Origin: Cenococcum geophilum
Lineage: Eukaryota
Length of the DNA stretch: 64,000 nucleotides
Assembly: GCA_050273025.1 (NCBI GenBank)
Contig: CP158635.1
Location: 18,228,001-18,292,000 of the forward strand
Direction: 5' to 3'
Shown in pieces: positions 1,201 through 23,100 of the stretch. The notes below the pieces were generated by a model. It searched no databases. It saw nothing but the letters and a program-made list of their open reading frames with translations, and had not been told where the DNA came from. Every line of letters starts with the position of its first letter. The stretch's first letter is position 1. Position numbers and translations under genes: made by a program.

Positions 1201-1526
1201 GTCTTATAGTAGTCCGTAAAGGCGATTAACGGGTCCGTAACGGTTCGTAGAAGGGTAGGGGGTCTCTGTAAGGGGTCTAAAAAGAGGTTGGGGGTATTAA
1301 GGGAGGGTGTAGTAGGAATAGGGGTTTAAGGTTTAAAGAGGTTAAGGGTAAGGGGTTCTATATAGGTCTATATTCGCGTTTATAAACTTCTAGTAAACTA
1401 TACTAAGACTTAAATAAGTATATAGAGTTAGTAATAAGTCCGTAATCCCTGACTTCTAACCTTCTAATAGGTTGTACTAGGAGTCTAAACGGGTGGTTGC
1501 TGTCGTATATATCGCTTGGGGGGAGG

Positions 1527-1795
1527 TGTTAAGTAATTGCTAATCTGTGCGCGCTTACTGATCAGTGTTCGTACTAATTTAATAGCACAAGTAAGTTGTA
1601 TCCACGGGCACGAAATACATGTAGTATCGTATGCTTGTTTAGATGGTGACTGTCAATTGTATAAAGTAGACTACGTGGTCTATATACTGATGCACCTCCC
1701 CCCTAATTAGTTAGTGCTTTATAAGTGCACTAAACGCGTACCTGGTGTACCGAACGCGTAAGCACACGGTTGGTATAATAGGTGCTATAATTATA
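1527..1795 (+). mobile_element. LTR remnant preceded by a polypurine tract (3' end of a + strand LTR element)
   Basis: PPT ggggggagg (1518-1526) directly precedes tgttaag. The sequence is less RIP-mutated than its flanks and cuts off the Plavaka ORF at ~1795. Right boundary is approximate. Confidence 0.5.
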
Positions 1796-2850
1796 CAGTA
1801 AGATATACCGGCTAGGCCAATTTATCACTATAGTATATTATTAGCTAGGTCTTATTAACTACTATAAGTATAGGAACTACTATAGCACCGCTAGGAAGCT
1901 TGCCTTATATCTTTTACCACTAATCACCGCTATATAGCTTATTATAAACATAGTGGTTTTCGGCATTATAGAGTCTCTTTAGTATATATACCAGTGCATC
2001 TTTAAAGGGTTAATGGCCAATTAGAAAGGTAATTACATTTATAATATCCTAATAAAGAATATAGTATTCCCTCTACTTAGAGCCTTTAATATTTAATTCC
2101 ACCTTACACTCTAATCGGAGCTATTATTTATCTTATATACTAAATAAAATAGCGGTAATTAGTTCTTCCTATTAATTTATAGATTGGAAGCTAAGTAGGC
2201 TATAAAGTAGGCTAAGGCGGGTGTCTTTAAGTAGTGCGTTAACGTCTCCCTTTATGCAGCGAATGCGGTACAGCTATATTAAAAAGGCGTAATTAAACTC
2301 TAAATAAAAAGGATTGTATAGTATACTTTGGCTATTATCGTATTATAATATAGTAATATCTAAAATTATCTAGCTAACTTACTACACATTATTATTAGTC
2401 TTGCATAAAATTGGTTTACCCGCCTTTATATTCTTAGTTGCTTTAAATATCTCTACTTTAAGTGATAATAATAACAATATAACGCTTTTCTAATATAGTA
2501 TACCGTACGGAGGCACTAGATAGGCATTCTACTTATATTCTACCGCCACCAAAGTATACTTGTTAGTATCCGTGTTTATACCGTCTAGTTATAATCGCGC
2601 GTTATCTAACCAGTAAAAGTAGTGGAATTAATCGCAAATTATAAGCAGTCGGGCCGTAATAAATATGCGAGTATTATATCTCTCTTTGCGTGCTTTTTTG
2701 TAGACGTGTTAGTGGCTAGGTAGCTGCCTTTTATAGCACCGTAGGTGTTAGTAAAGGCCGCCGTAACTCTTAGGGGTATAAGAACACCATAGACAGCTCT
2801 GCTGTATTATTGCTAATTATATATTAAACAATATAGTATTGTTTTTAGGC
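1796..2850 (-). pseudogene. Plavaka-type (CACTA-related) transposase, RIP-degraded, 3' truncated
   Basis: Minus strand ~1940-1796 reads LYSGD*W*KI*GKLPSGAIVVPILIVVNKT*LIIYYSDKLA*PVYLT, which restores to LHSGDWWW.MQ.KLP.GATVVP..I..DKTQL....GDKLAWPVYLT, the Plavaka core motif. Upstream it reads LEFNYAFLI*LYRIRCIKGDVNALLKD. Confidence 0.8.
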
Positions 2851-2964
2851 GTAAAAAGTGTGTGTTATAGTACTAACGGTTAATTGCCGGTATTTGATCT
2901 ATATGGGTGGCTTAGCTTTATAGCTGCTAAGAGTATACCTCTTATTTTTTCGCCAGAACTAGTT

Positions 2965-3272
2965 ACGCTAAAGCACAAGTATAACTAGCCTAACACCGAG
3001 TTTAAGGACTTAAAAGAGTCCAAGGCAGCCAAAATAGACGCTAAAGCGCAAGTATAACCAGCTTAACACTAAGTTTAAGAACTTAAAAGAGTCTAAGGCA
3101 GCTAAACTGGATGCTAAAGCACAAGTATAACTAGCTTAACACCGAGTTTAAGGACTTAAAAGAGCCCAAGGCAGCCAGAATGGACGCTAAAGCGCAAGTA
3201 TAACTAGCTTAACACTAAGCTTAACACCGAGTTTAAGGACTTAAAGAGTCTAAAGTAGCAGAACTGGACACT
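2965..3272. repeat. Tandem array of four 73-bp units
   Basis: The unit start a(c/t)gctaaagc recurs at 2965, 3038, 3111 and 3184. Confidence 0.9.
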
Positions 3273-3549
3273 GTGAACTAAAGACTCAATAGTACCCAAA
3301 AAACCTTTATCCGTCTAAACAACAATATATAGTATTCTTAGGCAATGGCTATAGGACCACAGTAACAGCGAAGATATTATTTACCACTAATGTTACAGAG
3401 CCCGACGATATTAGCTATCTAGACCTACAAATTCCATTATTTCTATATAAGCCATGACAAGAAAAAAAGGGAAGATTAAGGGTAGTACTAGTTGAGTTAA
3501 GATAACTAAATAAGTTAGTACTTAGAACTATAATATCTAGTCTTAGGTA

Positions 3550-4100
3550 TATAGAGTTCTAACTAATGTTTAACTTAAGCTGCCGCCCAAAAGTCTTATA
3601 TTTATCATTAGGGTAACGCTAGAGGGCTAGGCCGGATAATAGGTATCGGCAACAATATAGATGATTTAAAGCCCGCAAAGTAACTAAATAAAAAGCCTAT
3701 ATCTCGCAGGCTAACTACTTATCTTTAATAGCTTTTAAAAGTTTATTTCTAAAATTCCTTTTAATATCTCCGGTTTCCTATTAAACAGATATGTTAGCAT
3801 AAGCCTATATACTACTAGGGTGCGGAGAGCTAAAATATAGTTAGAGCTCTTTAAATGATTTGCCAGAAAAGAATAGGTTATTTAGGTCAGCCTATAGATC
3901 GGCCAGCTTAACCTTAATATCCTACCCTAGCTTACGAAGATTAGGGCTATCTCTACCCAGTATACTACCGTCGATCTGCGTATTAGTATCTCCCTTATTC
4001 GTAGCAGCTAAAGAGGCTTTAGGTATCTGGTCTCTAGAAGGCATTATAATACGGCTTTTAAAAGAGCCCGCTCCGAGCTAGGGTACCAGACGCTATATTA
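3550..4100 (-). pseudogene. RIP-degraded hypothetical protein
   Basis: Protein-like minus frame (MPSRDQIPKASLAATNKGDTNTQIDGSILGRDSPNLRKLG*DIKVKLADL*ADLNNLFF...) with RIP-type stops. No family recognised. Confidence 0.35.
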
Positions 4101-4556
4101 TAGGTAAAGCTTATAATAGTTGTATAAGGCGGGATACATTTCTAGGCAGTATGCGTTTAGAGAAATTGAGGCTGAGGTAAGCTTAATGTAGCTATATTTT
4201 TGAAGACAAAGAGGCTATAGTATTGGTTTAGGCGGCTATAAAAGTTTAAAAAATTAAGCGAACAATAGCAGGAAATAGAAGAAAAAGGCGCGTAAATAAG
4301 AGTACGGTGTTATAGGGCTAGAGTGACAACAGCTATATTATGGATGGCTCGACATATAATTCAGATTACGGGACCTATATATAAATAAGTCTAGCGAATA
4401 TCTTTAATATAAAGCGTAGTAGCTATAAGTAGGATCTAGGATACTAGTTTTAGGTTGTCTATATAGTAGATATAACAGCTTATCTAAAAAAAAGTTGCTT
4501 TATCGGTGACATAGCTTAAAAATAGGTTATACTTTAGGTAAAAGGGTATCCTAAAG

Positions 4557-4875
4557 CCTTATCTTACACTTATAGGATAAAATACCATATTATATTTTAC
4601 TTTGTTTTATACAATCTTAGACTTTTTATAATATCTTAAATCATCCCCTTACCTCTCTCTATTATACACTTTACCTTATCTTACACTTATAGAATAAAAT
4701 ACTATATTATATTTCACTTTTTTTTTTATATAATCTTGGACCTTTTATAATGTCTTAAATCATCCCCCTACCTCTCTCTACTATACATTTTACCTTACCT
4801 TATGCTCGTAAAATAAAATACCATATTATATTTCACTTTTTCGTACAATCTTAGACATTTTTAATGTCTTAGATT
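4557..4875. repeat. About 2.7 tandem copies of a ~118-bp unit
   Basis: ccttatcttacacttatag.ataaaatac.atattatattt...aatctt.gac...aaatcatcccc repeats from ~4557, ~4674 and ~4793. Confidence 0.8.
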
Positions 4876-5399
4876 GTCCTAAACTTATTCCTTAACCTCT
4901 CTAAAGCTGCTTTACTAACTAGTTATAATATAAAGAATAGAATCATCAGCTCTCTTATTATCATATATCTAGTCTAGTTGCTTAAGTATACCTACTAGGG
5001 CATCCATTATCCTATCTATAACTCTTTAGCTTCCTATATAATATATATAACAACTAATGTTCTAAGGCTTCTACTATAGATTACACTTATTTTTATATGC
5101 CTTGCTATTTATATCTTGCAATTTTATTTACTTAATTAGCAGCGCAAATCTTATATCTCATCTCGCCACGCACCTTTCGTTCCGTTTCTCACTCTAAGTC
5201 TTATATTTTATTCTACTGCCCATATTAAAGCTTATATCTCATCCTACTTCTTATATTAAGACTCGCATTCTATTCTATTTCTTACATCGCTCTTATATTA
5301 CTTTATTAGAATCCGCTATTATCTTAAGTTAATACCATTAGCACACCTTCTTATTATAACTGTCAGGATTATCTTATTAGATTATTACTAATTATCTAA

Positions 5400-8300
5400 T
5401 ATATTATCCGCTCTACTGTCTTTATAAGTTACTCCATACTATTCTATATAAAACTTTTACCCGCTTATAAATATATAGGGTCCTTAACTATAATAGCGGC
5501 GCTATACCTAAACTCTAGTTAGTACTTAACCACTATAACTAATAAGAACTTATTGTAAATAAGTGGTCCAAAGCTGCAGTAAGGACTCGCGATTAACGAA
5601 AAAACATATAAAGAAATCCTCTAATACTATGCTAGCGAAATCAACAAAGCGTCTAGCGGTAGGTTGCTAGTGTCCGGGCCTATACAAAATAGAGTTAAGC
5701 GCATAGTCTTTAACCTTCTCGATACTAAGTATAGGCACGTATTTAAGAGATCCGATCTACTATTAAAGTTTAAAGCTTTCACTGTCGCCGCTAAAAAATC
5801 TATATAGCGACACATAACGACCAACAGACGTAGAGGCGTAGAGGTTACGATAGCTAATATTATTTTAAAGTATGGCGGCTTATCTTCCAGAGAGCAGTCT
5901 ATTAACTTATCTAGATTAAGGGCAGCCTCTAAGGCTGCCTAGGTGCTTAGTAGTCTATCTATTAAAGTCCTATAATAGCTAAATACCACACCTACACTAT
6001 TCTATAAAATAAGTTTTGCTATATATAGTTACCTAGACAAAACGCCATTAAATGGGGCCCCCATTCCATACGGATTTATATTAAAAACTAAGCATAAGTA
6101 TCTATTATTCGATTCTCCAGAGAAAGTTAATATATATTACTATGGATATAATAAGCTATAGGCCGTAATAAGTATAAACTTCTCGGCGAATAAATACAGG
6201 GATGGCTGGGCTATAGTAGATCTGACTACCAGTATACTAATTCTCAACTATATAAACCTAGCATTTACGGTGCTTTCTATAAAGAAGGCTAGACTTAATA
6301 TAATTATAATTAGGGTTAAAAATCCCAATCAGATTATAAAGCGTAAAAGACTTTATAACTTATATAAGATTATATAATATTATATAGAGTTATCTAACGT
6401 ACGTTTATAGGTATAAGATTTAATAAGAGTACTTTTAAGTCCAACTCTAACCCTAATATTACACAACTAGTGCCGACTAGGAGAAGAATAGGCATACCTA
6501 CCCTAGGTTAAAGTAGTCACAAACAGTTAATTCTAGAGTCCACGCCACCTATATCTAAGCAGTTAAATCCAAAGCCTACGTTAACCCTAAAGTCCACGCC
6601 ACCTATACCTACTAGTGCATCATCAGCCGTATAGCCGGCTATAATCAAAACTGCTTATAGCTAAACCCATAGTAGTAAAGACTAGCCCCTACTAGATAAA
6701 TTAGAGCTCTTAAAAGGCGTAGATCTAGATAAAATATAAATATTTAAGATAATGCCATAGGATAAGATAAAAGGATAGTGTAATAAATAGCCAAAGTCTA
6801 ATCGCGAAATGTTTATCGATATATTATTTAAGGATATAAATAATAACCCTAACCTAATTTATATTAGGGAAATTAATCTTAACCGCATATAGGAGCGCCG
6901 CCACTTTAATGCCTTAATTAACCCTATTTTAACTAACAAGGAACTAGAAGATAAGCATAAGGATAGAATTAAGGAGGTTAATTAGGAAGTTAATTACCTA
7001 AAGGACGTGCGAGAAGCATATATTAACCTAATATTATAGGTAAAGGCGCTATAGTTCCTCTCGTTTTTATTAACTATTTATAACACTCTTTAAGATATAA
7101 CCTTCTACTTATATAGCATAAAAAAGGGTAAAGCTATATAGACATATTACCTGCTTAGTATTACCTATACTCTTTATAATTATACAGCCCTAGGTGGGAC
7201 CTTTCTTATAGATATAATAGGTTTAGGCAAGACACTTTAAATGCTCTTAATCTAGTATACCAGTGTGTTAATAACCAAAATTAACCTTAACTGGCTTAAT
7301 TAGAAAAATTAAGAAGGTAGAGATAAAAGTCTCTACCTTACCCTTAGTATAGACGAACACCCGCAGCCGCCTAACGCCCAATGCCTAAGTTAAATAGATG
7401 GCATGCCACAGTGCTATTATATTAAGAGAAGTATCACTAGAAATTTTCTTTACCGGCTAGTAGGACCAACTATATATATTACTAGACAGAATCTACTACC
7501 CTAAGCGGTTAAAGATATTAAATTATGGTTTAAAACCTTAGAACTAAATAATTATATTCCTAAAGGTAAACTATAAGTTCGCGTACGCCATTTGGCTTTT
7601 ATTAGGTCTAGTATAAAGAAGTATAATTTTATAGATAAAGATAAAGATATTCTTAAACCTATAAAATATAAAAGAGAAGGTAAGAAGATCTAGTAGATAA
7701 TAGACCTAAGATCGGCTTCGTATCTTATAATTATAACATTATAAACTTAGGTAATAACCTAGACCGCTTAGGAACAGTATAAAACTATTTTTAATCTCTA
7801 TAGAGACAGTAGTCCTCGTTATATTATTAGTAGGATTCTTACCAACAAGTTCTATATAGATAGGTTAGAGACAGGTTATCTAATAAAAATAGCCAAATAA
7901 GTGTATAATAATTAAGCAGTATTTCCTTACTTTTAACGCCCGGGCCTGTCTTACAAGGATAGCAATGGTAAAATAGCCTACTATACCTCTTAACCTTTAG
8001 TAGTGTTTACTTCCGGTATACTAACTAGCAAAGGTTTTATAAGTCTAATTCCCGCCTTAGAAATTTTTAGGGCCCTTAATTAGGCGGATTCCACAAATAC
8101 AAAATTAATTAATAATCGTAATATTAAAGCATTAATTACTTTTCTCTTCTAAATAAGGTTATTATGGGCTTTAAAAAATACTCCTCTTTAATTATAAAGA
8201 TCTTAATTATACGCAGGATAGGGGAAAACCGATGGTTTAATAGGAGGGTAATTAATAAGCTACCACTGGTCGTCTACTAAGACTACTATATAATAAACGA

Positions 8301-9310
8301 TTTAATATTTAAACCGTATATTAATAAGCTCTGGCGTGGAGTATTCCTAGATGCTTTTAAATAGCTAAATAAAGCCTTTAAACACTAGAAAGCTAAAGGA
8401 AGAAAAGGAGAAAAACCCGTCTTTAATATGGATTAATTTCTAGAGGGAGCCGGTCGCTTATTAAAAATTTTTACTATCTTTCTAGGCCTAGCTAAGGTAG
8501 GAGATAAGTAGTAGGATATATAGTAAAAGAATAAGGTAAAAGTTAGAACAAAGCTAAGGTGGACAGTTAATAAGTTTTATAGCAAAAAATAGGATAAACC
8601 TTTGGATAAGAATCCGCTTTAGAGGAATTAAAGCATAATTACTAACTCTAGGAAACTAAAGCTAATTATAAAATACGTTAATAAAGTACTTAAAAGGAAT
8701 CCTAATAAGAGACTACTCTTTAGTAGTTACGAACTAGCAGCATATACGCTATTACGCCTTATAAGTTAGCTATTAGACTAGTAGTAAACTATTACTAATA
8801 ATATAATATAGTATTTCTATAAAAGGCTTAGCCAGTCTAAATATTTAGCTATTCGCTAAATAGAGTCTAGGACATCCCTAAAAGACTAGGAGGACATCTA
8901 TAAAGCGTTTTATATTCTAATAGGCAGTCCTTACCAGAATAACATAGTTTAGTTTCTTATTATTAACCGAAGGGTTAGAGGAGAGGGTCTAAATTTGATC
9001 TCTATATATAGAGTCCATCTACTTAAACCGGCGATAACGGTAGATATAGAGGTGTAAGTATTTAGCCGGGCTGCTAGATCTAGACAGTTAGCGCTAGTAG
9101 TTACTATATTAACAATATATAGTACGGATAGGTAGAACCCAATTAATATAGTTATATTAGCGAGGCGTATAATAACTAAAAGGATAACGATTAATAAGTT
9201 CTATAAGATATTTAAAACCCAACCTACTTAGTAGGCTAATAATAATATAATAGAAATAGCGTAGCTAGTGTAGTTAGAGCAGCGATCCCCTATAATAAGA
9301 GTGTGTTTTA
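5400..9310 (+). pseudogene. SNF2-family helicase-like protein, RIP-degraded
   Basis: Motif I at ~7195-7245 reads GGTFLIDIIGLGKTL*ML (restores to GG.LAD.MGLGKTLQ). Helicase-C at ~8940-9100 reads V*FLIINRRVRGEGLNLISIYRVHLLKPAITVDIEV*VFSRAARSRQ (restores to GGEGLNL..A.RV.LLEP....E.QA.GR..R.GQ). A long protein-like N-terminal frame runs from ~5400. Confidence 0.8.
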
Positions 9311-9394
9311 GTATAATATATACATATATAGATAATATATAACTATTTAATATTTTATAATATATTATCTTAGTGTTAACTACTATATAGAAGT

Positions 9395-10468
9395 ATAGGC
9401 CACCTTATATATAGTACTAATATTACCCCACTAAAATACTTATAACTTAAGAACTACTATAATTATTTATATAAAATTTTAAATATGGCTTATTAAATAG
9501 TAATTTAAGCTTTTTATAAAATAAAAATTTAAAAATTTAGAGCTATTTATATATAGTTTTAAAAAACTTATAGCTTAATAACTATAATAGCTATTTATAT
9601 AAAAATTTAAATATAGCTTACTAATTAATATATTAAACTTTTAATATAATTAAAATAAAATACTATAAAATATTTTATAAAGAGTTTAACTTATTAATTA
9701 GTAAGCTATATTGGTTTTTATATAAATAGCTATTATAATTATTAAGCTATATATTAGCGACTTAGTTAATTAAGGCATAAGTACAGAAAGAGGAACGTGT
9801 AAGCCTATACGATTAGTAGTCTATAAACGAGGATCTAAAGCTAAAAAAAGGAAAGGAGAGGGCGGCGCCACTTAACGTTATATACAATCCTCTGGTCACA
9901 TGACGGCAAATGTTTAAAACCATCTAAAACTATATAAAACTGTCTGCGATTATCCGCTATAATCCACTAATATTTACTAGTTTCCACCAGCGTCGTAATA
10001 CTATAAGTATTTTAAAACTATATTTTAATATAAAATATAAAATAAAACTATATATAAAATAACTTTAAAATAAAGAATTTTTATTTTATAAAAAGCCTAA
10101 ATTACTATTTAATAAGCTATATTAAATTTTTTATATAAATAACTATAGTAGTTCTTAAGTATAAGTATTTTGGTAGGGTAATATAAGGTAGGACTGTCAC
10201 GGGACTCACACGCTCTCACGTCCCTGCGCGTTTTAACGTTCTTGACCCGTGCTCACGTTCGTCTCGAGACACCTACGCACGTTCCCCTATAACCCCTATT
10301 TATACCCAACCTGGCACACGAAGAATCTTCTTCTTTATCCAAAATGTCTCTGTATCAACCACGCATAGTTACGCGTACGTAGCCTTCTTTAATTACTACC
10401 CTGTTTAGTATATTGTATTCCAGCTCGTACCTACTTCCGTGACAAGGACCGTACACAAGGTAGCCCAT
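9395..10468. mobile_element. Foldback/MITE-like element with long terminal inverted repeats and a second internal inverted repeat
   Basis: 9421-9530 is the reverse complement of ~10075-10183, and the match extends outward past the solo LTR (ataggccaccttatatatagt vs atgggctaccttgtgtacggt). An inner inverted repeat pairs ~9570-9640 with ~9680-9752. Confidence 0.6.
10195..10444. mobile_element. Solo LTR (250 bp)
   Basis: Termini tgtcacgg...ccgtgaca with a perfect 5-bp TSD aggac at 10190-10194 and 10445-10449. Confidence 0.95.
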
Positions 10469-11339
10469 TCTAGAAAGTTTAAATTTAGTTTAGATTAATA
10501 TTACTCCGGCTACTAACTACTTTAACACCTATTAAGTAATCCAGCTTACTAACTCTCGTTCTTATATACATAAATAGTTCCTATTAAAGTATATCCTCTC
10601 TACTAATAGATTATATATATTTGCTATCTTTATTATTCCAAAAGCCTAATTAATACGTAAGAGGATCCTCCCGTTAGTAGTGGTTTTTAAGATCTTACTA
10701 TCCTATATAAAAACTTTTTACTACTAATAACTACTAGCTCCCACCCGCATACTATATAATATCTATATAAAATCCCTAACGGCGAAGAAAAGCGTACCCT
10801 AATTATTCTATTTAATCTACCTCCTACCTTTTTCCATAGGTGTAAGATATTAAATTAACCTATAATATAATACCAACTGGAATAATTGGCAAACCTAGCT
10901 CCGTTAGATAAATATACTTAATAATAAGAACTAAAACCCCGTTACTACTAAGCCTATTATACTGCAAAATAAAAGGGCTATTATTAATATTAGTACGTTT
11001 TAAACGCACTTTATTAGCCGGCACTAATAGATATAGGTTAATAGGCTACCTACTACTTTATATTTAACGGTTTTAAGAACAATAGGGTAAAACATACTGT
11101 TATTTATTATACTCTTACCGACTATAATAATTAATTTATTATAGGCTAGAAACTTAGCCTTAAACAAGTAAAAGGCAGACTTTTAGGATATATTAGACAT
11201 ATTATAGACAAAACCTTTATATAGCCTACCCGCATTAGAACACCTTAATAGTAGTACTATACCGTTAGATTTCGCTATTAGGCATTAAAGTAACCGAGCA
11301 ACCTTAAGTCTTTCCCTTGTTGCCCGACCCTAAGCCTTA

Positions 11340-11665
11340 TTACGTCGCTAAGACTCTTATATTATTAAGTTTTATTATATTACTAAGTATTATTACATTA
11401 CCGCTAAGCCTCATTATGTTGCCGAGCCTTATTGCATCGTTAAGTCTTATTACATTACCGAGTCTTATTACATCGCCGTTAAGCCTTATCATTTCGCCGA
11501 GCCTTATTGCATTGTTAAGTCTCATTACGCTGCCAAGTCTCATTGTATTGCCGTTAAGCCTTATTATGTCACCGAGCCTCATTACATTGTTAAGTCTTAT
11601 TACGTTACCAAGTCTCATTGCATCGCCGTTGAGCCTTATCACGTCATTAAGCCCTATTATATCGC
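11340..11665 (-). repeat. 18/21-bp tandem repeat, probably a coding repeat (RLGDVM/RLNGDAM) of a RIP-degraded gene extending to ~10500
   Basis: Unit lengths are multiples of 3, and the minus frame continues beyond the array into protein-like sequence (ERLKVARLL*CLIAKSNG...). Confidence 0.6.
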
Positions 11666-12849
11666 CGCCAAGCCTCCTAGCTAGATTGGGCAATTAGACG
11701 TCGCGAATTCAACTCCTAGGCGTGGCGGGTTTGATTCCTACTTATCGCGCATTAAAAATATCAAAAAAGAAGGTCATTTCCTATTAAATTAGGCGTTAGT
11801 AAGGCTCCAAATTAAGCTTATATTTTCGTACGTATCTCGCAACGCCTAAAGTCATACATTTAACGAAATCTCAGCACTATATACTAAGCATGTCGGCTCT
11901 TCTACGCTGATTTTTAATTATATTGGGCTAGCTCTAAATTAAAGCAAGAGGTAGAACATACCATACTACTACGCTATAAGGACTTTGGAATGTAATTTTA
12001 TAAATTTAACTAAATTATAACCCCTTCCTAAACCTTACAATCAAACCAGATCCTTAAGGAGAGATCCCTACATTAAATCTTAGGGAACGTTTAGTGGCGA
12101 CTTTAGATTAAATCTAAAGGCCCTAGAATATATCCGATCTAAAGCTTAAATCTAATTCTAATATAATCATTTAGTTAATCTGGCAACTTTCTAATCTAAA
12201 AGCTCCTCTAGATTAGTAAGCTATACTATATATAGAATCTAAACTAAGGTCTTAGTATTAGTTTAAATTAGGAGCTTAAAGCTTATCTAAAGCCTTATAG
12301 AAGGATCGACTTAATTTTAGATTTCATATTTTAGTAAGTAGTTGATCTACTATAGTCCAAAATCTTAGTCGTTAGAAATTTAGGGTGTCTCTATCACTAC
12401 AGTGGCAGAGGTACCTTAAGTTTAACACCACGCTAAGTATTATAACTTTCCTGCAGTAACCAAGCAATCCTAAATTAAAGTAATTGTAAAACTTACCATA
12501 CCACTACCTACAAAGGCCCTTAGTTATAGTCTTATAAATTTAATTAAAATATAAATACCTTCCTAAATCTCACAATTAAATATTTTTACGTGCAGCACTA
12601 TGCCAAGGATTATAATACAGATTGCTTAAACATAGCTTTACTACAATATAACGGCTCTACGCCAATTAATTAATCTACGGCTCTAAAATCTAGATCTATA
12701 ACACTAAAAACAAGCTCTAAGCTACTAATTTTATATTAACAGAATAAAACTTAGCAAGAGATTCGGGCAGTAAAATTACTGCTAAGAGTTACTGCCCGGA
12801 TCCTGGCCGATAAATACCCATAACCATAATCTTAGTAAATGGTAAAAGT

Positions 12850-13165
12850 ATATAGCAGTACCGAGACAATAGCAAGATAATATAAGACAATAATAAAACA
12901 ATATAACATAATGGCAGAACAATAATAGGACAATATAGCATAATGGTAGGACAATGGCAAGACAATATAATATAATGGTAGGATAATAACAGGACAATAT
13001 AACATAATAGTAGGACAATAATAGGACAATATAACACAATAGTAGGACAATAATAGGATAATATAACATAATGGCGGGACAATAGTAGGACAATATAGGA
13101 CAATATAATACAATGGCAGGACAATAGTAGGATAATATAAGATAATATAAAAACATAAAATATAA
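12850..13165. repeat. Degenerate short-unit array built on aggacaata/caatataaca
   Basis: Many ggacaat-type copies; the array produces the three overlapping spurious Y/C/L-rich ORFs in the track. Confidence 0.85.
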
Positions 13166-13279
13166 AATATAAAAAGAGGGAGCCCTAACACTTCCTCTTC
13201 TTCTTACCCCTATGGCCCTAGCGCCCAATATAGTGTAATATCGTCTATCCGTATAAGCGATAGTATTAAGACGGTTACT

Positions 13280-14400
13280 TTAAGCAATATACCTAGATAA
13301 CTAGTCTAGCGCATAGTTTATATAACATGTAATAATAATAAGGGGATCTCCTATTATTATATTACTAAGCAACGCCTTTAAAGCTACATTTTTCTAGTGC
13401 CTAGAGGTCCTTAGATTATTACAAAACGCTTTATAAGAACTCGTTTCAGCGCAGTGGCTTTAAGCCCTATAGTAGTTATATCTGGCCAGTCTTTAAGAAT
13501 ATAAACATTCTCAAATAAGGAAGCATCCTTAATAGCTATAATTGAGCTAAGATCCGTATAAGGCTTATTTATAACGTATTATAGTGCTTTAATATTCTAT
13601 TAAACTTAAACAAGGTGTTCTAATAACGGGAATCTATTAATAGTTAGATATCTTCTTATTTAAAAAACATCGCACACTTACAGCTCTCTTATTAGCTTTT
13701 ATAATACTAATATAGTATAGTAACTAACTTCATAAAATCTAGTTTATTCCTTAACCATCGTCTATAATACGGATAAGTTAATCTTAATCTCTTTAGGTCT
13801 TAAAGAATAAGTTAACCTCTAGAGGATTCTATTCTAATACAGCTAATAGTCTCGCCGCCGCTATTACAAGTATATATTTCATTTAAAAAATATTAGTCTT
13901 AGGAGTTAAAGCAACTAGAGACCTAGCGACTAGTCTTTTTAACTAATCCTAACGGATCATCTTCCCTACTCTCCTAAGTAAGAACGCCACGCGGATTACT
14001 AGCCCTTAAGGTAAAAATATTACTAAGCTAATATAGGCCTTATAGATGTCAGGGGATAACTGCTTTAGAATTATAGCATACTTACCTATTTATATATACC
14101 GATTCTATTACCATATCTAGATTCCGGCAAACTAAAAGGGTCTACTCTAATTTAACCCACTACCTCTCTTAACGGTTTAATTATATCTTCTCTTAAAAGA
14201 TTATACTAAGAGCTTAGATACTCCTCTATTAAGCTAGACGGACCTAAGATCTTATTAACTTATAGTAGAATATCTCCGTTTTCGCTGATAATATTCTAGC
14301 CCTTATTAGGGATATTAAGTATTTTAGCGGAGGTTAGGACCTCTAATCGTGCTAACTAGGCTCCACTAGTTAAGGGCTAACTAGGCGTCTTAAAGTATTA
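13280..14400 (-). pseudogene. N-terminal fragment of an Hrr1/SAD-3/ZNFX1-type UPF1-like RNA helicase, with intron
   Basis: Minus strand reads EEYLSS*YNLLREDIIKPLRE..., then a GTAAGT..CTGAC..AG intron (~14090-14039), GKMIR*D*LKRLVARSLVALTP, ALKRVLIKRFVII*GPLGTRK (restores to IIQGPPGTGK) and GDPLIIITC..NYALD*L (restores to TNHALDQ). Similarity ends soon after motif Ia. Confidence 0.85.
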
Positions 14401-14749
14401 ATAAATATAGTTACTAGTATATATTAAGCTGCCTAGAAGGGATTTATATATATAGAACTATAGCGCTATAGCCTAGAGGCTATATACGCAGTATTATACG
14501 TAGTATAATACAATAGAGATAAAAAAAAAATTTATATATATATATATAAAAAGTATTACCGAATTTAGGTACTAAATCGAGCTTATTAAGACGGAGGAGA
14601 CATAAAATAGATAGGAGGAGGCTTATAAGTCCAGGTAGTATAGCGGGTAGAGAAGCGTTCGCTAATACACTTATTTATTTCTTATAAGATATTTAACCAA
14701 TTGTTTTATATATAACTAAACAATATAGTTACCTATCTACACAATCCTA

Positions 14750-15600
14750 TATATTAGTCTTAGCGCGTAATTAAGACGTCTTTCCTACCGCACCTCCCCC
14801 AACGCTTTTGGAATTATAGTATTAATAATAGACCTAAGCCATAACACCAAAGACACTCTTAAGCGAGATCTTAGGGTTACGAATAAACAATACAATACGA
14901 TCTACTATAATATTAAAATTAAAATGTCGACGCGCGGGCTCCTTAGATAGCCACTACGCTCCCTTATAAGTAAGGTATAAATACGGCAAATATTAAACGA
15001 AATCTCTAATGAATTCCTATTTATATTTCTAGGTTTACCTAAGAATTTATATACTAAATATATTAAACAACTTACCTAGCACTACAGCTATAACGCGACG
15101 TATTAAATAAACAAAACGGCTCCTATTAGGCAAATTACAATAGGCAACCTAGTACTCCCACACTCCGCCATCGCGTATTATCCACCGGCCGGCATACCAA
15201 AGGTAATAAGGTAGGAGGGAACACTAAGGTTATATAGGATAATAATAATACTAATCCGGCGGGCAGCTGACAAAGAGCTAATAATTATCCCAACCCAAAA
15301 GCTAGCAATTAGTAAGAATAACGCCCTAAATATATATATTAATAATCCAAGCTTTAATATATTTATAGACATGCTAGGCTAGGATATTAACTTTAACTCT
15401 AAAAGCAAAATGCTTTACTACTATGTTAGCAACAAGATAGCTAGAGAACGAATTCAGCTTATAAATAAAGAGAAATGGCATAGTGCGGTTAAGGATATAT
15501 TTCTATAAGAAATAAATAGGTTTTTATTTATAATAGAACAAAGAAGAACAAGTAAGTTACTATTTAAAGTTAATTTAGCGTTACTAACTCGTATTTATAG
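14750..15600 (+). pseudogene. RIP-degraded hypothetical protein
   Basis: Nearly open protein-like frame (DLSHNTKDTLKRDLRVTNKQYNTIYYNIK...PSFNIFIDMLG*DINF...INKEKWHSAVKDIF). No family assigned. Confidence 0.4.
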
Positions 15601-17499
15601 TCTACGCTGCCAGCCAAGAACAATACAATCACTTACCCTCTATTTCCGCACCCTTGCCTTTACTAAATAACTTATACTCTATACGTATAAGAATAGGTAG
15701 AATAGGTAAATAGGTTAATACTAAGGCGATACTTAAGCTATAGCTATCCTAAAAAACCTCTCCTAGTCAAAAAAGAGCCCTTACTCTACGCCTTAACCCG
15801 TAACAAAAAAGGCGAAGGCAACTATAACCGCAGCATAGATTATGCGCCTTAAAGCCACTACTTTATTCGGAATACTTACTGGTTTAATAGATTACTATAT
15901 ATAAAGGTAGACGGCTTAATATTAGAGCCCTTCGGCGTGCTATTAAGCGAGGGAGTCTCAGAATAATATGTCTTAGGATATTCTTATAACTTATCCAGCA
16001 TTTTTAAAACGCCTAAGGGGATTAGATAATAAAGCCTAAAGTTTATACCTATTCTTTCTAGTGAACTCGTTAGGGTAATATATATTAATACCGTCCCTGG
16101 CTCGCTCTTAGTATTTAATACCTAATCCTTATATCTATACTTACGCTTTCCTTACTATTCTGCTAAATTTAATTGCTATTATAATACATATATAGGGGAT
16201 AGGTTAGGCTTACTATAGGCTAGCAAGGTTAACAACACGGAAGAATAACGTTGGATATTTACGGTAGAAATACTAGGTGTTGTATAAGGGTGTAGAATAT
16301 GGCGATATAACTATATAGAAGTGTCATTACTATCCTATATACCGCCTGTGCCTACCCTAGTATTATCTATACTAGCGAGCTACATAGATAAGGTAGATAA
16401 GCTTCGCTTTAAACGCGAGACGAGTGTTAAACCTAGTATAAGTAGACTAGAATAAGGTATAGGATCTAAAAGCCAGCGCCTTAGGTGGGTAAAGTAGTTT
16501 AATAAGGTACCTCCCTATTAAATTTAGACACAAGCCTTACTAGCCTACTACTTTTATTACTAGGATTAACGTTTAACCTTTTATATACCTATACCGTATC
16601 TGCTAAAAGATATGCTAATAGAATAAAATAGTTTCGCGTATAATAGCAAATAGTATTAAACAATCTTTAACTATATAATAATGTTTTCTTAACTACTAAC
16701 TTAACGCGAGTTAATAGGTCGCGGTCGCGGCTTAACTATAACCGGTTAGAACTAGTAGCTAATTACAATAAATGCACCCCTATTTAAGTTATTTGCAAGC
16801 ACTATAGCAATAATACTCCTACTAATACTGCCATTAGTCTAATATATACTATACCAGTATATATTCTTTTAAGTTATTAATCTATATACGCTCTAGACAT
16901 TATAGAAATAGCTATAAGGTAACCTATTTTAGCTATAAGCTATACATTCTGCTAACCAGGCAAATATAGGAGTGTTACTATAGTAGGTAAACGTAAAAAC
17001 GCGTTATTAAACACTTAAACTAGTAGCAAGAACCCTACTTTAAGTTAACGTATAATAAGGAAACGAGGATAACTAGTATAATTAACCTTACGTCTCTACC
17101 TAGCCTACTACTAGAAGTTGCCTACGTCCTAGCTAATAGAAGGAAAAACGCGCTAACGGAGAATAAGTATGTAGAGCCTAGCTAGAATAAGCACGTGGAA
17201 CCTAGCTAGAACGAGCAATATTATAACTCTGGTTTAGTTATATTTGGGCGTAAAAAGGAGCAGGCACGTAATAGACCCTATTAACGTCGTATATAATATA
17301 TTAAGCTGGCTAATAATATATAGAATGTATATGGCCGCCTCTAGCTAAAAAGGGTAATCTCTAATAATAAGGATAGTGACTGCGAGTCTATACCTGCTTC
17401 TTTTATAAAACGATAGTAACTAAATATTAATAAATCTACTAAATTTATTAATAATCTGGTAGTAGAACTAGCTTAGTTAAAAACGTAAAGTCCCAATCT

Positions 17500-19500
17500 T
17501 TTAGTTAAGGTAGGTTATACCTTTATATATAACCGGAGTCTAACTATAATACTTAATAGTCTCCTCTACTATTTAGTACTTAATGGGCCCTAGTAAATAA
17601 AACACTCTCTTTACTATCTAACCGCCAACCGCTATAAAAAGTAGCATCTTCGCAATATACCTCCGGCTCTTAATAATTGCGTATTAGTTTAAAATACTTT
17701 CCTATATATCTAATCCGTACCTTACTGCGTAAATAATTACGTACTAGTTTAAAATACTCTTCCGCGCGCCTAATCTATACCTTATCGCGTAAATAACTAA
17801 TATTTAGCTTTATATTCTCCCTAGTAAGCCGTGTCCGCCTAAACCCTAATATAGCTTCGTCCATAAGACAAGTAACCTCCCTCTAATACAGAGTACACTA
17901 ACCTAGTATTTAATCTAAAGGGGACCTAAATAGCGCTAGGGAAAGTAAGGACGAGTTAGACTATAAAGACGATTTTAACCTAACTGCCGCGCTATAGGCA
18001 AGAGAAGAGTACCTCTAAATATTATAACGGCGACGTATAAAAGAAAACCTACCTAAGAGATATAAGCCTATATTTGCGCTTTGTAGGTCCATTTTACTAG
18101 TAAGACTAGTAACTAACTCTGGGACTTATAATAGGCATCTTATTAACCCGTAGTTCGACCGCTTTTTAGGCCTTATTAAGGATATAATAAAAAAGGCATA
18201 GTTAGAAGCCATTTTAAAGCAGCTAAAAGCAGTGTAAAAAAAAGCTAATCGTATTCCTGACCCGGTGTCCGCTTGTAAGGTATCTATATACTAGAAATAT
18301 TATATTAAATTATCCACTAACAATCTTAATATTATATATAGCTATTTAACGTAATAGGGAACTTTAGGAACTACGCGATTATAAAGGCTTATATAATTAT
18401 AAGGGAGGTATATAGGCTAGGGTTTAACAACGCGCCTGAACTTATTATGGAACTACTAACTAATTACAATTTTATTGCGCTGGATTATACAAAGGTATTT
18501 TGCCCGTGCTATTTAGTAAAATACTAATAAGAGTTAATAGCTAAGTAATAACCGCTTCCGTTTTAACGCGATAGTTACTAGCATAGCTAGTATATTTTAT
18601 AGTAGAGGAAAGAACGGCCTTACCTAATTACCCTGCTCTTATAATATATTTAAAAAGCTTACCGGTAACACTATTACTTTTATTTTAATAGCAATATATT
18701 ATATAATTAGGGAGTATAGAACTGGGTCTAAGGGAACAGATAACTTTTATAGTACTATTATTAGTAGTTAGTGCATATCCAGTATTTTACTACCTATTAT
18801 TATTCTCTAACCCGTTATAGAAGCCTACGCTAACCTCTTAGGCGGCTAGAACCAAATATCTAGAAAACGGCAATCTAGAATCTAGCTACGGCTTTAGCCT
18901 ATAGTTATTAAATATACTACAGGCCTAATGCCGGATTAATTAACTATAGAAATTATTAAGGACCTATATAAAGATAACCTTAATAACCTTATAGCGGATC
19001 TAAGCAATAATGTAAGAGAGAGGTTCCTTATAAGCCTTAGCGATAACGAAACTAACGCGATTATTAACTTAGGCTATTTATTAGTGAGCCAGGCTATACT
19101 ATCTAATCCACTAAGCCTATCTCAAAGGGAGAGCTCTAGAGTAGGCTAAACTAGTTTACTAAGTCTGTCCCAAATAGAGAGCTCTAAAGTAGGCCAAACT
19201 AGTCCACCAAGTCTATCTTAAAGGGAGAGCTCTAGAGTAAGCTAGAAAATCTAGGGCCTTACTACTACTACGATATTTGCTAATTCAACTTTTAGAACTA
19301 GCTAAGTTTATTAAATTCAGTAGAATATACATCCTCTGCCCTAGTTTATTACTTTATCCTAAATACAGGAACTAGCAAGCCTAGGCCGGAAAGGTTTAAA
19401 TCTAATAAGTTATTTATACAATTTAAGCAGTACTATAGCCTTATAGAGGATAGCTATAGCTAATATAGTAACGGGAAAGTAATATTAAATTTAATTAAGA
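17500..19500 (+). pseudogene. DUF6532-like hypothetical protein with Ser/Gln-rich tail, RIP-degraded
   Basis: ~18550-18730 reads RFRFNAIVTSIASIFYSRGKNGLT*LPCSYNIFKKLTGNTITFILIAIYYIIREYRTG, resembling the DUF6532 C-terminal pattern (F..P.I..AI...WF.....G......F..I....IA.V.TAI...I.EW.TG). Recognised from memory. Confidence 0.45.
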
Positions 19501-19967
19501 ATAAGGAGCAGTATATAAAGTTTATAATATATACTCTAGACTCTAGTATAGAGGAGCTAGTAGAGTTTTTAGTAGGAGATTAGGTGCAGGACTTTCTATA
19601 TTCTCCTATAGGATAACTACGGCTTCTTTATTATATATACTAGCTCTTAATCTACCTTTCTTTCGGCCTATATCTGCTACTCTTAGTAGCTACTTTTTGG
19701 CTATATATATATACTATGCTAGTAAAGCTAAATACTTATATTATATTATTATCGTAGGGAAAGCAGGAAAGGTTTTATAATTTTAGAATATATTATAAAA
19801 CAGTTAGAATATTATATTATATTATCTAAAATAATATATTAGATTATATAAGAAAGTGTATACAATTTACCTTACTAGCCTTATAAATAGCTTTAAAGTA
19901 GCCTTTTTTATTATCTAAAATATACTATTGGTATAAAAGAGGTAGATGGCTCCAAATACAATTATAG

Positions 19968-20036
19968 TTGCAGGTTGCGTGCAGGTTACGCGCAGGTTGC
20001 GCATAGGTTGCGCGCAGGCTGCGCGTAGGCTGCGTG
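19968..20036. repeat. 11-bp tandem repeat gcaggttgcgc (~6 copies), candidate subterminal array
   Basis: gcaggttgcgt gcaggttacgc gcaggttgcgc ataggttgcgc gcaggctgcgc gtaggctgcgt; a GC-rich island next to the junction with Gypsy pol at ~20130. Confidence 0.85.
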
Positions 20037-20129
20037 TCAAAAAAACACGACATAGGCTAGTCGGTCGGGTTGCCAAATGCCCTCAACTGCGCGCCAATTG
20101 CGTCAACCACCAACCATTAAGGCCATTAG

Positions 20130-23100
20130 AAGGGTACTATATTTTGCCGATATATATAGTAGTAGTTAGTTATAAATAGGGTAATAAGGGGTTCCTTAGG
20201 TTAATATCCTAGGGAGTAAATAGAGGTGGCTAGGCTATACCCTAGGCAAGTCTCTCTACAGTATTTAAAGTTAAAGGTTACTTCTCTCTTCTTCTAGTTA
20301 ATGGTAGGGTTATATTATTTAAGCTAGTTTATTTTAAGAATAATAGGGTAGTTAGTAAGTAGTATAATATAGGCCTAAAGTTTTTCCTAGTGCCTATTTA
20401 TATCTAGGTAGAGTTATACTATATAGGTAATCTTCTATACAATATAATTACCGTTAGCGAGTTATAGGGCACAGGCTTTAGTAAGGGGTAAGGTAAGTAA
20501 GTTATAAGTACACACAAATTAGGTATCTATAAATTTATTAATAGCTTCGCAATTAATTATAAAACAGCTTTTATATTATTTTTTAGTAGTAGTTCCTATT
20601 ATAGGTAAAACTATCTATTTCTGTCTATTTATCTTTATAGAGTTATCTATTAAGTAAGCCGATATATAAATCCCTCTATTATTAAGGCGTCCTAACCTAC
20701 AACTTAGGGCTAGGACTTAGCGTTTTCCGCTTCTATATCCAACTCTACCGCTATTACTATATCTTTGTCTTATACGGTAGTAGCATATAGCAACGTATTT
20801 AATATTTAGGGTATTAGGTTAAGTATTAGGCGGCAGCTACTAAACCTAGCCATTAAGCAGTTTAGGTTATTATAATAATAGCCTTCTTAATAGTATCTAT
20901 AGCAGCGTCCTAGTTTCTTAAGTAGCTCGTACTCTCCATCTAGGAGTTTTTATAGGAAGGTTAGTATAGAGAAATCAATATTAGTTCTAGTAGTACTTAA
21001 GGTAAGCTCGGACCCCTAGAACTCGGCCGCCCCCGAACTCGGCCACTTAAGCGAATCAAACCCCACCACTTTTAAAGCTATCTATACTTAATTAAATCAA
21101 CTTAACCTCCTACCCCTACGTGCAATTTAATATATTGGCCCTGGCCTTTCTACCTAGCGCATTTTCAGGCTTTGATTTTAACTCCTTTGTCGTTATTTTA
21201 GCCTCTTTTTTCTCTACCTCCTCTATACCTTACTTAACCAAATCTATATTTCTAAAATCTATATTTAGACCTATAGCCACCCACCTATGAATTTTTAGAC
21301 CTTTAAGGTCTTTAAGCTACGATTGCGAGCTATATATTTAAGCGTCCTTATATATAGTCTCTACAGTAAGTTGCTTAAGTTAGTGACTTCCTTTTTAGAA
21401 AAGTAACTAAGTCTTTTAACTAAGTATATATTTGTTATAAAGGCTATAAACTACTTAATATATATTATAAGGCTTTTTTAGGATGTCTATAGTATTAAAC
21501 TAATAACGGTTAGCTTATTTAAAGCTTAAAGCCTTTATTAAAGCCTTATTTTTAACCTATAAAGACTTAAAGCCCTTACGTAGATTCTATAGATAAATAC
21601 TAAAGGTATACTACCTAAATTTAACTATTTTTGCTAAAAGACCTTCCTTTTAGGCTTTGTAGTTATACTTAGTAAAGCAGCACCCTTTAATTTAAGTTAT
21701 ATTATAAAGAAATATAAGCTCTATAATTTAGTCCTAATATTTTAATTTTATAGAGGAGAAATACAATAGATTTAAGGGTTATTATATTAAATAAAGCAGT
21801 AGAAAATAAAGTTATATATTATATTATATATATTTTAATAAAAACTTAATTATATAGTGGCTTATATAGCTATTAAAAATAATAATTAAGCTTTATTGCT
21901 AAAAAACCCAGTTATATATAAGAAAATATTAGTAAATTAGTTAAATATAATAATATTTATTCTTTTAACTATTTTTTAATATTATATATACCTAATAGAG
22001 TGTTTTTCCTTGGTAGAATTATATTAATTAAAAGTGTTTTCCTTTAAAAATTATAAGAAGTTTAATTGAGTAATTAAGGGTAGATATTATCCCTATAATA
22101 AATACCTATTTATAATTATTTAGTAACTATATAAAAGTTTTCTCTTTAAAGGTATCTTTGGTAGTAATTTAGTTTATATATACACTTAATATAACTTTAA
22201 ATTTATTTATATATTGGGTATTTTCTACTTATCTATTAACCTTCCTTTATACTTTTTTATAAAGGTTATATAATTTTTAAATTTACTTTAGTTACGCCCT
22301 ATTAACTTACATACTTTCTATTAACTAGGGAAAAAAATTTATATAAATTTTTTATTTAAAATACCTAATTACCTATATTTTACTTAGGGGCTTTATATCG
22401 CTATTTTAATTAATCATTTAGATTACTATTCTTTTATAATTATATATATAAGGGAATAAATATTTATAAATTATATTTAAGTACCCAATTAATAAGCAAG
22501 GCCACCTATATAGAAGTTAATTACTATTTATATTAGTATATAAATTGCCCTAGTAGTATACCACTTAATTAATCGCTTAAAACAAACAAAGGGACACCGT
22601 ATGCAAGTATAGCTTTTCGCGCATACTTATAAACACCAGATTTAGAATCTACGATAGCTATTTATAAGTTCTACTTATTTTGGTCCATATTAATCGATTC
22701 GTTGTGGAGAAAATAAGTTGACAAATTGGTGGTTTGATTTTGGTTGGGTGGCCGACTTCCGGAGGTGGCCGAGTTCTAGGGGTCCGAGCTTAGTAGGTAT
22801 TAGTGGCTTAGTATATATAGGTTTGGTGGGCCCGGGGGGCTTTTATAAAAAGGTCTTTAGGTAAGGGTTAGCAGTAGCAATATAATTTAATTATTATTTA
22901 ATCTTCTATAGAGCTGCTACCACATTATAAACATCGTTATAATTATAGCTAGCGGCTTCGTAACTAAGGCAATAAGTAACTTTTTTTAAAAAGGTCCTCC
23001 TAGTCTTTAGTATCATCTTAGGTAAGGGCTCCGGTATATTCCTAAAATTTAATATAGAATTTATTACATAATTTAGTAGGGCTTATTTTTAGAATACGTA

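Follow-up and report, generated by a model that had tools for sequence, protein, structure and literature searches.

A RIP-killed PlavakaB-type DNA transposon of Cenococcum geophilum with a putative SNF2 accessory cassette and captured host helicase fragments

In a 64,000-nucleotide stretch of the Cenococcum geophilum genome (contig CP158635.1, positions 18,228,001 to 18,292,000; hereafter the window), a sequence-only reading had placed a Plavaka transposase together with several host-like genes in a giant cargo-carrying transposon. Did this block move as a single unit, and do its genes belong to the element or to the host? The block is most of one RIP-killed copy of a 21.1-kb PlavakaB-type cut-and-paste DNA transposon that moved as a unit, a reading to which we assign a probability of about 0.78. 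Its features are listed in Table 1.

Table 1 Features of the window (positions count from its first nucleotide)
Feature	Position	Strand	Remarks
Nested LTR retroelement, right part	1-1797		6.4 kb, inside transposase gene; not the transposon's own
Plavaka DDE transposase gene, 5' part	1798-2840	-	Remainder left of window
73-bp tandem array	2965-3224		Copy number differs among copies
Captured DBP5 fragment	3721-4352	-	5' part: upstream region, first exon, following intron-type sequence; broken
119-bp tandem array	4557-4841		Between divergent transposase and SNF2 genes
Divergent SNF2-family ATPase gene (predicted)	5490-9290	+	~1,240 codons with two short in-frame introns inferred; boundaries approximate; RIP-killed
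AT-rich repeated/palindromic stretch	9390-10190		Mostly missing from 20-kb subfamily
Solo LTR	10195-10444		250 bp, TG..CA, 5-bp TSD AGGAC; private, absent from 10 other copies
75/18-bp tandem array	11331-11639		Related array present in sister family
32-bp tandem array	12886-13150
Captured ZNFX1/Hrr1/SAD-3-family helicase fragment	13280-14682	-	Matches 13280-14399 and 14550-14682; 5' part, two introns kept
Accessory gene without Pfam match	14858-15556	+	Common to at least three Plavaka families of the genome
DUF6532 gene	17900-18800	+	Domain ~18517-18756; extent approximate; PF20149 E 4e-5, at cut-off
11-bp subterminal repeat array	19970-20034		Retained in 2.4-kb non-autonomous derivative
Right terminal inverted repeat (TIR)	20139-20152		14 bp; end common to 30/30 loci inspected
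TSD and Gypsy pol target	20153-20905	-	TSD TA at 20153-20154; Gypsy pol is the insertion target

The right end of the Plavaka element lies at window position 20152, where similarity stops in every locus inspected, and 39 other loci terminate exactly at the end of the window copy. A terminus near 20120-20130, as first proposed, was not borne out, the 11-bp array lying 118 bp inside the true end. The left TIR was located at G000:C1:18220607, 7,394 bases before window base 1, placing the left end ~7.4 kb outside the window. Both TIRs are 14 bp long (CATCG..CGATG), and the right one matches the left at 13 of 14 positions in copies whose last base RIP has spared. At no more than one mismatch, 459 right and 477 left ends of the family were counted genome-wide, compared to 0 with a reversed control. 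The ends are bordered by 2-bp TSDs, mostly TA, which are exact in 13 of 15 pairs; all five non-TA pairs are exact (TT, TT, AA, TG and GA), and the two unequal pairs, each TG/TA, are compatible with RIP. A 3-bp TSD was rejected for the window element. The expectation of a common terminus with a TIR and a 2-3 bp TSD therefore held, with the position corrected from ~20130 to 20152.

The target was a Gypsy pol, as the adjacency of the two had hinted: the protease lies on the right-end side (RVP_2, weak at E 0.04) and the reverse transcriptase, sought at the left, was recovered in the left flank (RVT_1, E 2e-10). In all five uninterrupted Gypsy copies the two flanks are contiguous, overlapping by 2 bp, which provides an empty site, and a second empty site was found for a nested 2.4-kb derivative (TSD AA).

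The genome holds ~55-60 large copies, and every one examined is RIP-mutated. Ten full-length copies were fetched and all ten are colinear with the window copy, as had been predicted; the criterion for picking them was that both ends paired at 20-23 kb, which limits the colinearity result to full-length copies, and other copies outside this set are broken by insertions. Such broken copies might point to a mosaic of independent inserts or a segmental duplication, and the window copy itself does contain two independent inserts, the 6.4-kb LTR element and the solo LTR. However, at either end the copies cease to be alike at one shared base, each copy having flanks of its own; TSDs agree, empty sites are present and 10/10 interiors are colinear. 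We rejected a segmental duplication on the shared termini amid unrelated flanks, and consider either alternative scarcely credible. Shared ends, TIRs, 2-bp TSDs, an empty site and colinear copies instead uphold the proposal that the block moved as one large DDE element.

That unit is not the one contiguous block that had been described, being interrupted by the LTR element at the left and by the private solo LTR at 10195-10444. Position 1796, taken for the start of the block, is the 3' LTR end (1796/1797) of the nested element, beyond which the transposon continues to its left TIR. The 3' LTR spans ~1564-1797, the LTR pair is 83% alike, the TSD is 5 bp (GTAAG), and two other Plavaka copies run uninterrupted across this insertion site. 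The tandem arrays reported in the block were confirmed.

Heavy RIP was likewise recognised correctly. The window copy shows 19,992 differences from the ten others, 19,089 of them transitions, with C>T rates of 0.73 at CpA, 0.58 at CpG and 0.08-0.10 at CpT/CpC. The copies fall into two subfamilies of 20.0 kb and 21.1 kb, within which transversions amount to 0.0002 and 0.0019 per site, against ~0.09 for transitions. The family proliferated in a recent burst, in the form of these two subfamilies, before RIP destroyed it. Several hundred non-autonomous derivatives of 1.5-3.6 kb took their ends from it.

The transposase, including the part left of the window, was identified as a Plavaka transposase by PF18759 (E 6.9e-16 on the continuation of the window copy and 4.2e-46 on another copy), and family copies are among 123 genomic matches to Plavaka transposase. 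A full-length frame is present in the family; the de-RIP consensus shares 33% identity with Ciborinia camelliae KAI9640247.1 across 933 columns. The acidic motifs are visible, and between DYKE and GEAGH lie CTMC (C(2)C) and HALVH (H(3)H). PlavakaB, a member of the CMCT clade, has a PF18759 transposase bearing C(2)C and H(3-4)H motifs after its second D and before its final E, CA..TG ends starting CATC, and TSDs of 2 or 3 bp, in keeping with the 2 bp found here (Kojima 2025, PMC12730594). The published termini 5'-CATCA..TGATG-3' agree with those of the window element at 4/5 bases, the published family PlavakaB-1_AuCo also starts CATCG (PMC12730594), and the ends of a sister family in this genome start CATCAG. 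The TGT..ACA termini of PlavakaA are not those of the window element. Nor does the label 'CACTA-like' fit: fungal EnSpm has CAC..GTG termini and a 3-bp TSD (PMC12730594), whereas the ends here are CAT..ATG with a 2-bp TSD. From its transposase motifs and TSD, the element is probably of the PlavakaB type, and its ends are Plavaka-like.

Two segments match host genes elsewhere in the genome. The DBP5 fragment, present in 11/11 copies, matches an intact DEAD-box helicase gene at G000:C1:25.95 Mb (best PDB match Dbp5, E 1e-53) with 79% nucleotide identity over 643 columns; 102 changes are C>T/G>A, compared to 11 in the reverse direction and 4 transversions, and its exon/intron reading follows the host frames. 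The second, correctly called Hrr1-like at the outset, is a frameshifted piece of the ZNFX1/Hrr1 family that ends after motif Ia. It is 80% identical in nucleotides to an intact host gene at G000:C4:11.50 Mb (89% after de-RIP), with 227 C>T/G>A changes and 35 reverse, and carries 2-bp and 13-bp deletions common to the four copies compared. The donor is placed in its family by its best PDB match, ZNFX1 (E 4e-86; Upf1 2e-33), protein-atlas matches being generic; a short Cys-rich tail fits the fungal form, no close paralogue exists among 20 AAA_11 loci, and orthology to S. pombe Hrr1 and N. crassa SAD-3 is putative. Both fragments were copied at the DNA level and are young, broken and Pack-like. 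These two captures are a minimum, as further ones may lie at 16520-17599, 18780-19898, 4880-5500 and 10450-11300.

Pieces of the same ZNFX1/Hrr1 gene also occur in sister-family loci (C7:7.208, C7:2.092 and C3:1.389 Mb), and Hrr1 and SAD-3 have roles in RNAi heterochromatin and in meiotic silencing (PMC3759863, 10.1101/220111). Was the fragment kept because it blunts RNA silencing, by directing small RNAs or methylation onto a gene of the host's defence or by protecting the element? Its recurrence in two Plavaka families would suit this idea. However, the sister-family piece falls within that of the window family and 10 of 31 non-RIP differences from the host are common to both, so one capture passed between families could explain the pair. 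The donor is moreover intact, its captured part lacks RIP (indices 0.60/1.25 in the captured part and 0.63/1.22 outside, no CpA bias) and its orthology to SAD-3/Hrr1 is only putative; the fragment itself carries a frameshift, most of the piece is gone from one sister copy, and the other capture comes from the housekeeping gene DBP5. We therefore regard a silencing role as improbable.

A different pattern was observed for the SNF2 gene, the gene at 14858-15556 and the DUF6532 gene. SNF2 motifs I, II, III, V and VI lie in a single frame, and the window gene has a private 28-bp deletion. On RIP-mutated copies PF00176 stays below cut-off (best E 0.043, matches in 3/7), rising above it on a sister copy and on intact relatives; with a profile of the gene's own divergent class, the gene scored best of 138 sequences (E 5e-26; best host ORF 2e-17), corroborating the SNF2 call. 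Intact relatives with whole motifs were found in metagenomes (P0047, P0062; PF00176 E 6e-23). A metagenome scan with an intact relative gave one 1.1-kb contig with no neighbourhood, and no intact SNF2 was seen together with an intact transposase; a profile of the RIP-mutated SNF2 half returned 26 fragments of 36-161 aa and no intact homologue from 1.84 billion representatives, and 0 sequences from the PDB. A single-sequence fold of P0047 was too poor to use (pLDDT 35). The DUF6532 call also stands, at cut-off. Pfam gave no match for the gene at 14858-15556 and nothing useful for seven of nine window segments, and an HTH_Card1 match below cut-off was dismissed. A minus-strand frame at 15843-16517 has 66 genomic matches, all with stops, and the segment 11652-12848 has 106, none stop-free, its 3' part being common to other repeats.

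The earlier interpretation took all non-transposase genes for captured host cargo, passively carried in a manner Starship-like in spirit. This holds for the two helicase fragments, with their 79-80% nucleotide identity to host genes and RIP-direction changes. For the other three genes, however, no intact host copy, and no intact copy of the cassette, was found in the genome among 70 SNF2 matches (none intact at length), 85 matches to the gene at 14858-15556 (85/85 with stops) and 76 to DUF6532; intact subtelomeric SNF2 genes (C2, C5 and C7 ends) were rejected as donors, with no significant match. Moreover, the sister Plavaka family at G000:C7:7.21-7.24 Mb (TSDs CT and AG), whose transposase is only 54% alike, has counterparts of all three in the same order. 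Identities between the two families are ~20-38% overall: 25-38% for DUF6532, 23-29% for the gene at 14858-15556 and only ~18% for SNF2. DUF6532 is tied to Plavaka loci genome-wide, 49 of 76 matches lying within 30 kb of a Plavaka match (2.7 expected), and the gene at 14858-15556 is within 31 kb of one at 15/18 sister loci and 5/10 further loci. Fixed indels avoid the reading frames: of 56 that are fixed by subfamily, 0 lie within the inferred SNF2 exons or the gene at 14858-15556, and the three in the DUF6532 region are all multiples of three. In favour of cargo, the frame spanning SNF2 carries 16 non-synonymous and 1 synonymous fixed transversions between subfamilies (neutrality would predict ~3 synonymous; one of the changes counted creates a stop, and introns may hold some of them), so there is no purifying codon selection at subfamily depth. 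Host cargo is thus an unlikely account of these three genes, which behave as an old, conserved accessory cassette of the Plavaka families' own. Within it, the ~18% likeness and the absence of a direct tblastn match between the two SNF2 genes make separate SNF2 acquisitions possible.

How does this element compare with known systems? Starships have a tyrosine-recombinase captain as their terminal gene. The window element resembles them as a large fungal mobile unit with several genes, but has a terminal Plavaka DDE transposase, TIRs, a 2-bp TSD, high copy number, a fixed gene set and no intact adaptive cargo, supporting the distinction drawn at first. Pack-MULE and Pack-CACTA elements of plants carry broken fragments of genomic DNA, with introns, from more than one host locus, and are usually short, non-autonomous and without transposase. 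The fragments here likewise bear introns and come from two loci (C1:25.95 Mb and C4:11.50 Mb), but sit inside a full-length, transposase-bearing fungal element. The helicases of AcademH and KolobokH are RecQ-related. These DDE transposons, fungi included, also have their own superfamily-2 helicase gene (cited in PMC10799480), but belong to other transposase superfamilies, and the helicase is of DEAD/Helicase_C rather than SNF2 type (PMC10799480).

Large Plavaka elements with accessory genes are already published, to 24 kb in fungi: PlavakaB-1_GyCo has 24,396 nt (PMC12730594), and a ~21.6-kb run in the supplement belongs, by order, to PlavakaB-1_ScCi. The accessory gene described for PlavakaB is TET/JBP, and SNF2 is absent from the main text of that paper (PMC12730594). 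As far as that text goes, the present family differs in combining SNF2, the gene at 14858-15556 and DUF6532 with captured pieces of host genes, in a genome where RIP is strongly active. In the red alga Bostrychia, giant Plavaka elements (17.4-19.1 kb) carry a transposase and three accessory genes as a cassette (bioRxiv 10.1101/2025.02.11.637652). They resemble ours in size, kept cassette, tandem arrays and proposed chromatin-related functions, but their accessory genes are an adenine methylase-SET protein, a ParB-2OG oxygenase and one gene of no assigned function; in the preprint text SNF2 has a single mention, on host gene families (10.1101/2025.02.11.637652). An SNF2 cassette in Plavaka was not found in the literature searched.

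Taken together, these results suggest a model in which the Plavaka transposase would bind the TIRs and subterminal repeats and do the cutting and pasting. Roles of the accessory genes are predicted from sequence. SF2 motifs in SNF2 form and PF00176 in the family place the gene among the SNF2 ATPases, whose DNA-stimulated ATPase or remodelling activity is predicted for it. Most likely, if by a modest lean, the SNF2 ATPase helped the element by shifting nucleosomes or clearing proteins at its own ends or target sites, which would keep a silenced element accessible. With considerably more confidence, template switching in excision-gap repair is the most likely source of the host fragments, which would have been carried along without function. 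It is doubtful that ascomycete Plavaka form a giant-element lineage with a dedicated SNF2 motor for anti-silencing or targeting, which would make them the first DDE transposons to have a chromatin remodeller of their own, and that they also carry host RNAi-helicase pieces that turn silencing on the host's own defence.

Plavaka elements are little studied, and the accessory genes known from them encode enzymes that modify DNA or chromatin. To these a conserved SNF2 and DUF6532 cassette adds a further, new type, and it gives DUF6532, an uncharacterised Pfam family, a testable home as a transposon protein. The examined copies are dead, and their value is comparative. A fungal DDE element has here captured host gene pieces in Pack-like manner, and RIP has left the donors alone although ~55 near-copies exist, a case relevant to the question of how short homologies scattered through a genome escape RIP. 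Where such genomes are annotated, 'host-like' helicase genes that bear RIP mutations may be parts of transposons.

The genome that holds the window (178 Mb, seven contigs, C1-C7; window at C1:18228001-18292000) was searched with window 19400-20500, which returned 40 loci; in the 39 others, the match ends at window 20151-20166. An identical 14-bp terminus followed by unrelated flanks was found at all 30 loci inspected, placing the right end of the element at 20152. The sequence-only reading, which had proposed one large Plavaka/CACTA-like element, misplaced this terminus near 20120-20130. The left limit it had set at 1796 is the junction of a 6.4-kb LTR element inserted in the transposase of the window copy with a GTAAG duplication. 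Two copies whose match begins at 1797 continue into sequence 4.6-7.4 kb left of the window, and the true left end lies beyond the window at C1:18220607, where the element starts with CATCGGGAAAATAT; 13 of these 14 bases agree with the right end. The window copy is 27,546 bp long, or 21,123 bp minus the LTR insert, a length that includes a private 250-bp solo LTR. The region has a GC content of 26-38% and lacks a long ORF.

To count target-site duplications (TSDs), 15 left/right pairs with both flanks fetched were used, and ends without a fetched partner were left out; in three of them the ends are separated by 31-52 kb and were assigned to each other from their orientation and spacing. The 2-bp flanks are identical in 13/15 pairs, including all five that are not TA (TT, TT, AA, TG, GA), while the remaining two read TG/TA, a RIP change. 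This agrees with the 2-3 bp duplication anticipated from the window. Uninterrupted Gypsy copies (5/5) unite the two flanks of the window copy with a 2-bp overlap, so that the element inserted between the protease and reverse transcriptase of a Gypsy pol, whose continuation had been expected to the left. Another copy harbours a 2.4-kb derivative that has the window element's ends and is flanked by an AA duplication; the corresponding empty site is present in the window. The remainder of the transposase was also located left of the window, where PF18759 matches the continuation of the window copy (E 6.9e-16) and CMCT motifs are visible. The de-RIP transposase consensus shares 33% identity with Ciborinia camelliae KAI9640247.1 over 933 columns. 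In the accessible text of PMC12730594, PlavakaB is defined by CATCA..TGATG ends and 2-3-bp TSDs; the window element conforms apart from the fifth terminal base, at which one published PlavakaB family in the accessible supplement also departs. We conclude that the element is real.

Ten copies, selected by paired ends 20-23 kb apart, were compared with the window copy. All ten are colinear with it, as predicted for a block that moved as one, with block identities of 78-92%, and they form two subfamilies of 20.0 kb and 21.1 kb. Transitions account for 19,089/19,992 inter-copy differences (95%), and C is replaced by T at a rate of 0.73 in CpA and 0.58 in CpG, indicating strong RIP. Transversions per site are few (0.0002 and 0.0019 inside subfamilies, 0.0066 between them) against many transitions (about 0.09-0.10), which argues for a recent burst with RIP afterwards. 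Internal probes gave 70, 66 and 61 matches, from which the large copies number about 55-60 as a lower bound. Terminal patterns matched 459 and 477 times (control 0); on C1, 59 of the 68 listed right ends have a partner within 60 kb, 43 at <=4 kb and 10 at >=19 kb. Taken together, the analyses demonstrate mobility as a unit with TIRs and TSDs, a burst, death by RIP and two classes of passenger.

The first class comprises the element's own genes. The SNF2 gene points away from the transposase and occupies a single frame (about 1,240 codons) in which SNF2 motifs I, II, III, V and VI can be recognized; its Pfam match is weak on RIP-mutated copies. A sister Plavaka family on C7, lightly mutated, with a transposase 54% alike, CATCAG-type ends and TSDs of CT and AG (two copies checked), keeps the order and orientation of SNF2, a homologue of the accessory gene at 14858-15556 (29% identity) and a DUF6532 homologue (25-38% identity). 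Its SNF2, present as two paralogues per element, matches PF00176 (E 7.5e-8) and, used as a lead, recovered intact metagenomic proteins at 75% identity and nine more relatives. When 138 sequences were scored against a profile of this class, the window consensus came out on top (E 5e-26, compared with 2e-17 for the best host ORF); direct identity is only 18-24%. Of 76 DUF6532 matches, 49 have a Plavaka match no more than 30 kb away (expected 2.7), 14 of these 49 belonging to a smaller family at 4-5 kb. A stop-free copy of the accessory gene was found in none of its 85 genomic matches.

Among 56 subfamily-fixed indels, none falls in the inferred SNF2 exons or in the accessory gene; one of 2 bp lies at an inferred intron, and the DUF6532 region has three, each with a length divisible by three. 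The fixed transversions point the other way: the SNF2 frame has 16 non-synonymous versus 1 synonymous, and the transposase carries just 2 in 634 codons. These small counts are compatible with relaxed or diversifying selection and equally with noise.

The second class comprises captured host pieces. One matches an intact, non-RIP gene (80% raw, 89% de-RIP) whose best solved relative is ZNFX1, of the family that includes Hrr1 and SAD-3 according to the accessible parts of PMC3759863 and 10.1101/220111. The changes go in the host-to-copy direction, with about 230 C>T/G>A per copy versus about 28 in reverse. The piece retains two introns and stops after motif Ia; 2-bp and 13-bp deletions are common to the copies shown, and the fragment was therefore broken before it spread. 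A role of this piece against RNA silencing is conceivable but unlikely. Three sister-family loci also contain part of this donor gene, in a shorter piece. A second piece, matching the 5' end of an intact DBP5 gene, is present in 11/11 copies. Neither donor gene carries a RIP signature.

Features in and around the window element and related loci in the genome
Feature	Location	Remarks
DBP5 piece	window 3721-4352	donor C1:25.95 Mb
ZNFX1-family piece	window 13280-14399, 14550-14682	donor C4:11.50 Mb
Segment common to other repeats	window 12320-12820	also in a few low-stop loci (C4:23615835, C1:32021324, C6:8971874) that might be a further host donor
Large repeat, two inverted copies	window 27700-33700, 51900-56900	74-87% alike
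MITE-like inverted repeat	window 41647-42046	190 bp, 92% complementary, 20-bp spacer; kin piece 31058-31209
Small LTR-like element, little mutated	window 43382-45111	200-bp direct repeats, 98% alike, on either side of a GC-rich stretch (up to 51%)
Two repeat-filled units, inverted; likely non-autonomous Plavaka derivatives	window 57270-59332, 61672-64000	inner ends match sister left terminus; 12-, 20- and 4-bp interior arrays in common with the 2.4-kb non-autonomous derivative
Sister family (L162, L165, L166, L181)	C7:7205933-7235200	about 14 or more copies
Smaller Plavaka family	C5:17877785-17882689 and 13 similar loci	DUF6532 about 4.4-5.1 kb from transposase
Third large Plavaka family	C4:19.796-19.811, C3:21.67-21.69, C3:23.96-23.98, C2:14.47-14.48, C7:12.29-12.31 Mb	accessory gene about 13-15 kb from transposase
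Weak SNF2 match, third family	C4:19799036	between transposase and accessory gene
SNF2-like frames, a subtelomeric duplication spared by RIP	C2:28468864, C5:23937521, C7:18706562	stop-free, 1,163 aa, equal scores, each about 149 kb from contig end; more SNF2-like matches near other contig ends

In CMCT elements, a DDE transposase works on TIRs and subterminal repeats. The SNF2 ATPase may have aided the element's access in chromatin or its resistance to silencing, by analogy with the TET/JBP (PMC12730594) and SET/methylase (10.1101/2025.02.11.637652) accessory genes of Plavaka, for which the accessible texts propose such a role. The host pieces would have entered through template switching in gap repair and would be neutral. 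The size of the element is not new, because published fungal PlavakaB reach 24,396 nt (PMC12730594, as accessible, with partial supplement sequences in which gene content is not visible) and red-algal Plavaka span 17.4-19.1 kb with three accessory genes (accessible text of 10.1101/2025.02.11.637652). No SNF2 or DUF6532 cassette in Plavaka was found in the literature covered, which is thin for subscription papers; the sole paper found on Plavaka together with SNF2 names SNF2, in its accessible text, in an unrelated context, and DUF6532 appears in one paper as an enriched domain alongside Plavaka and KDZ. The sister family is the best template for studying the cassette.
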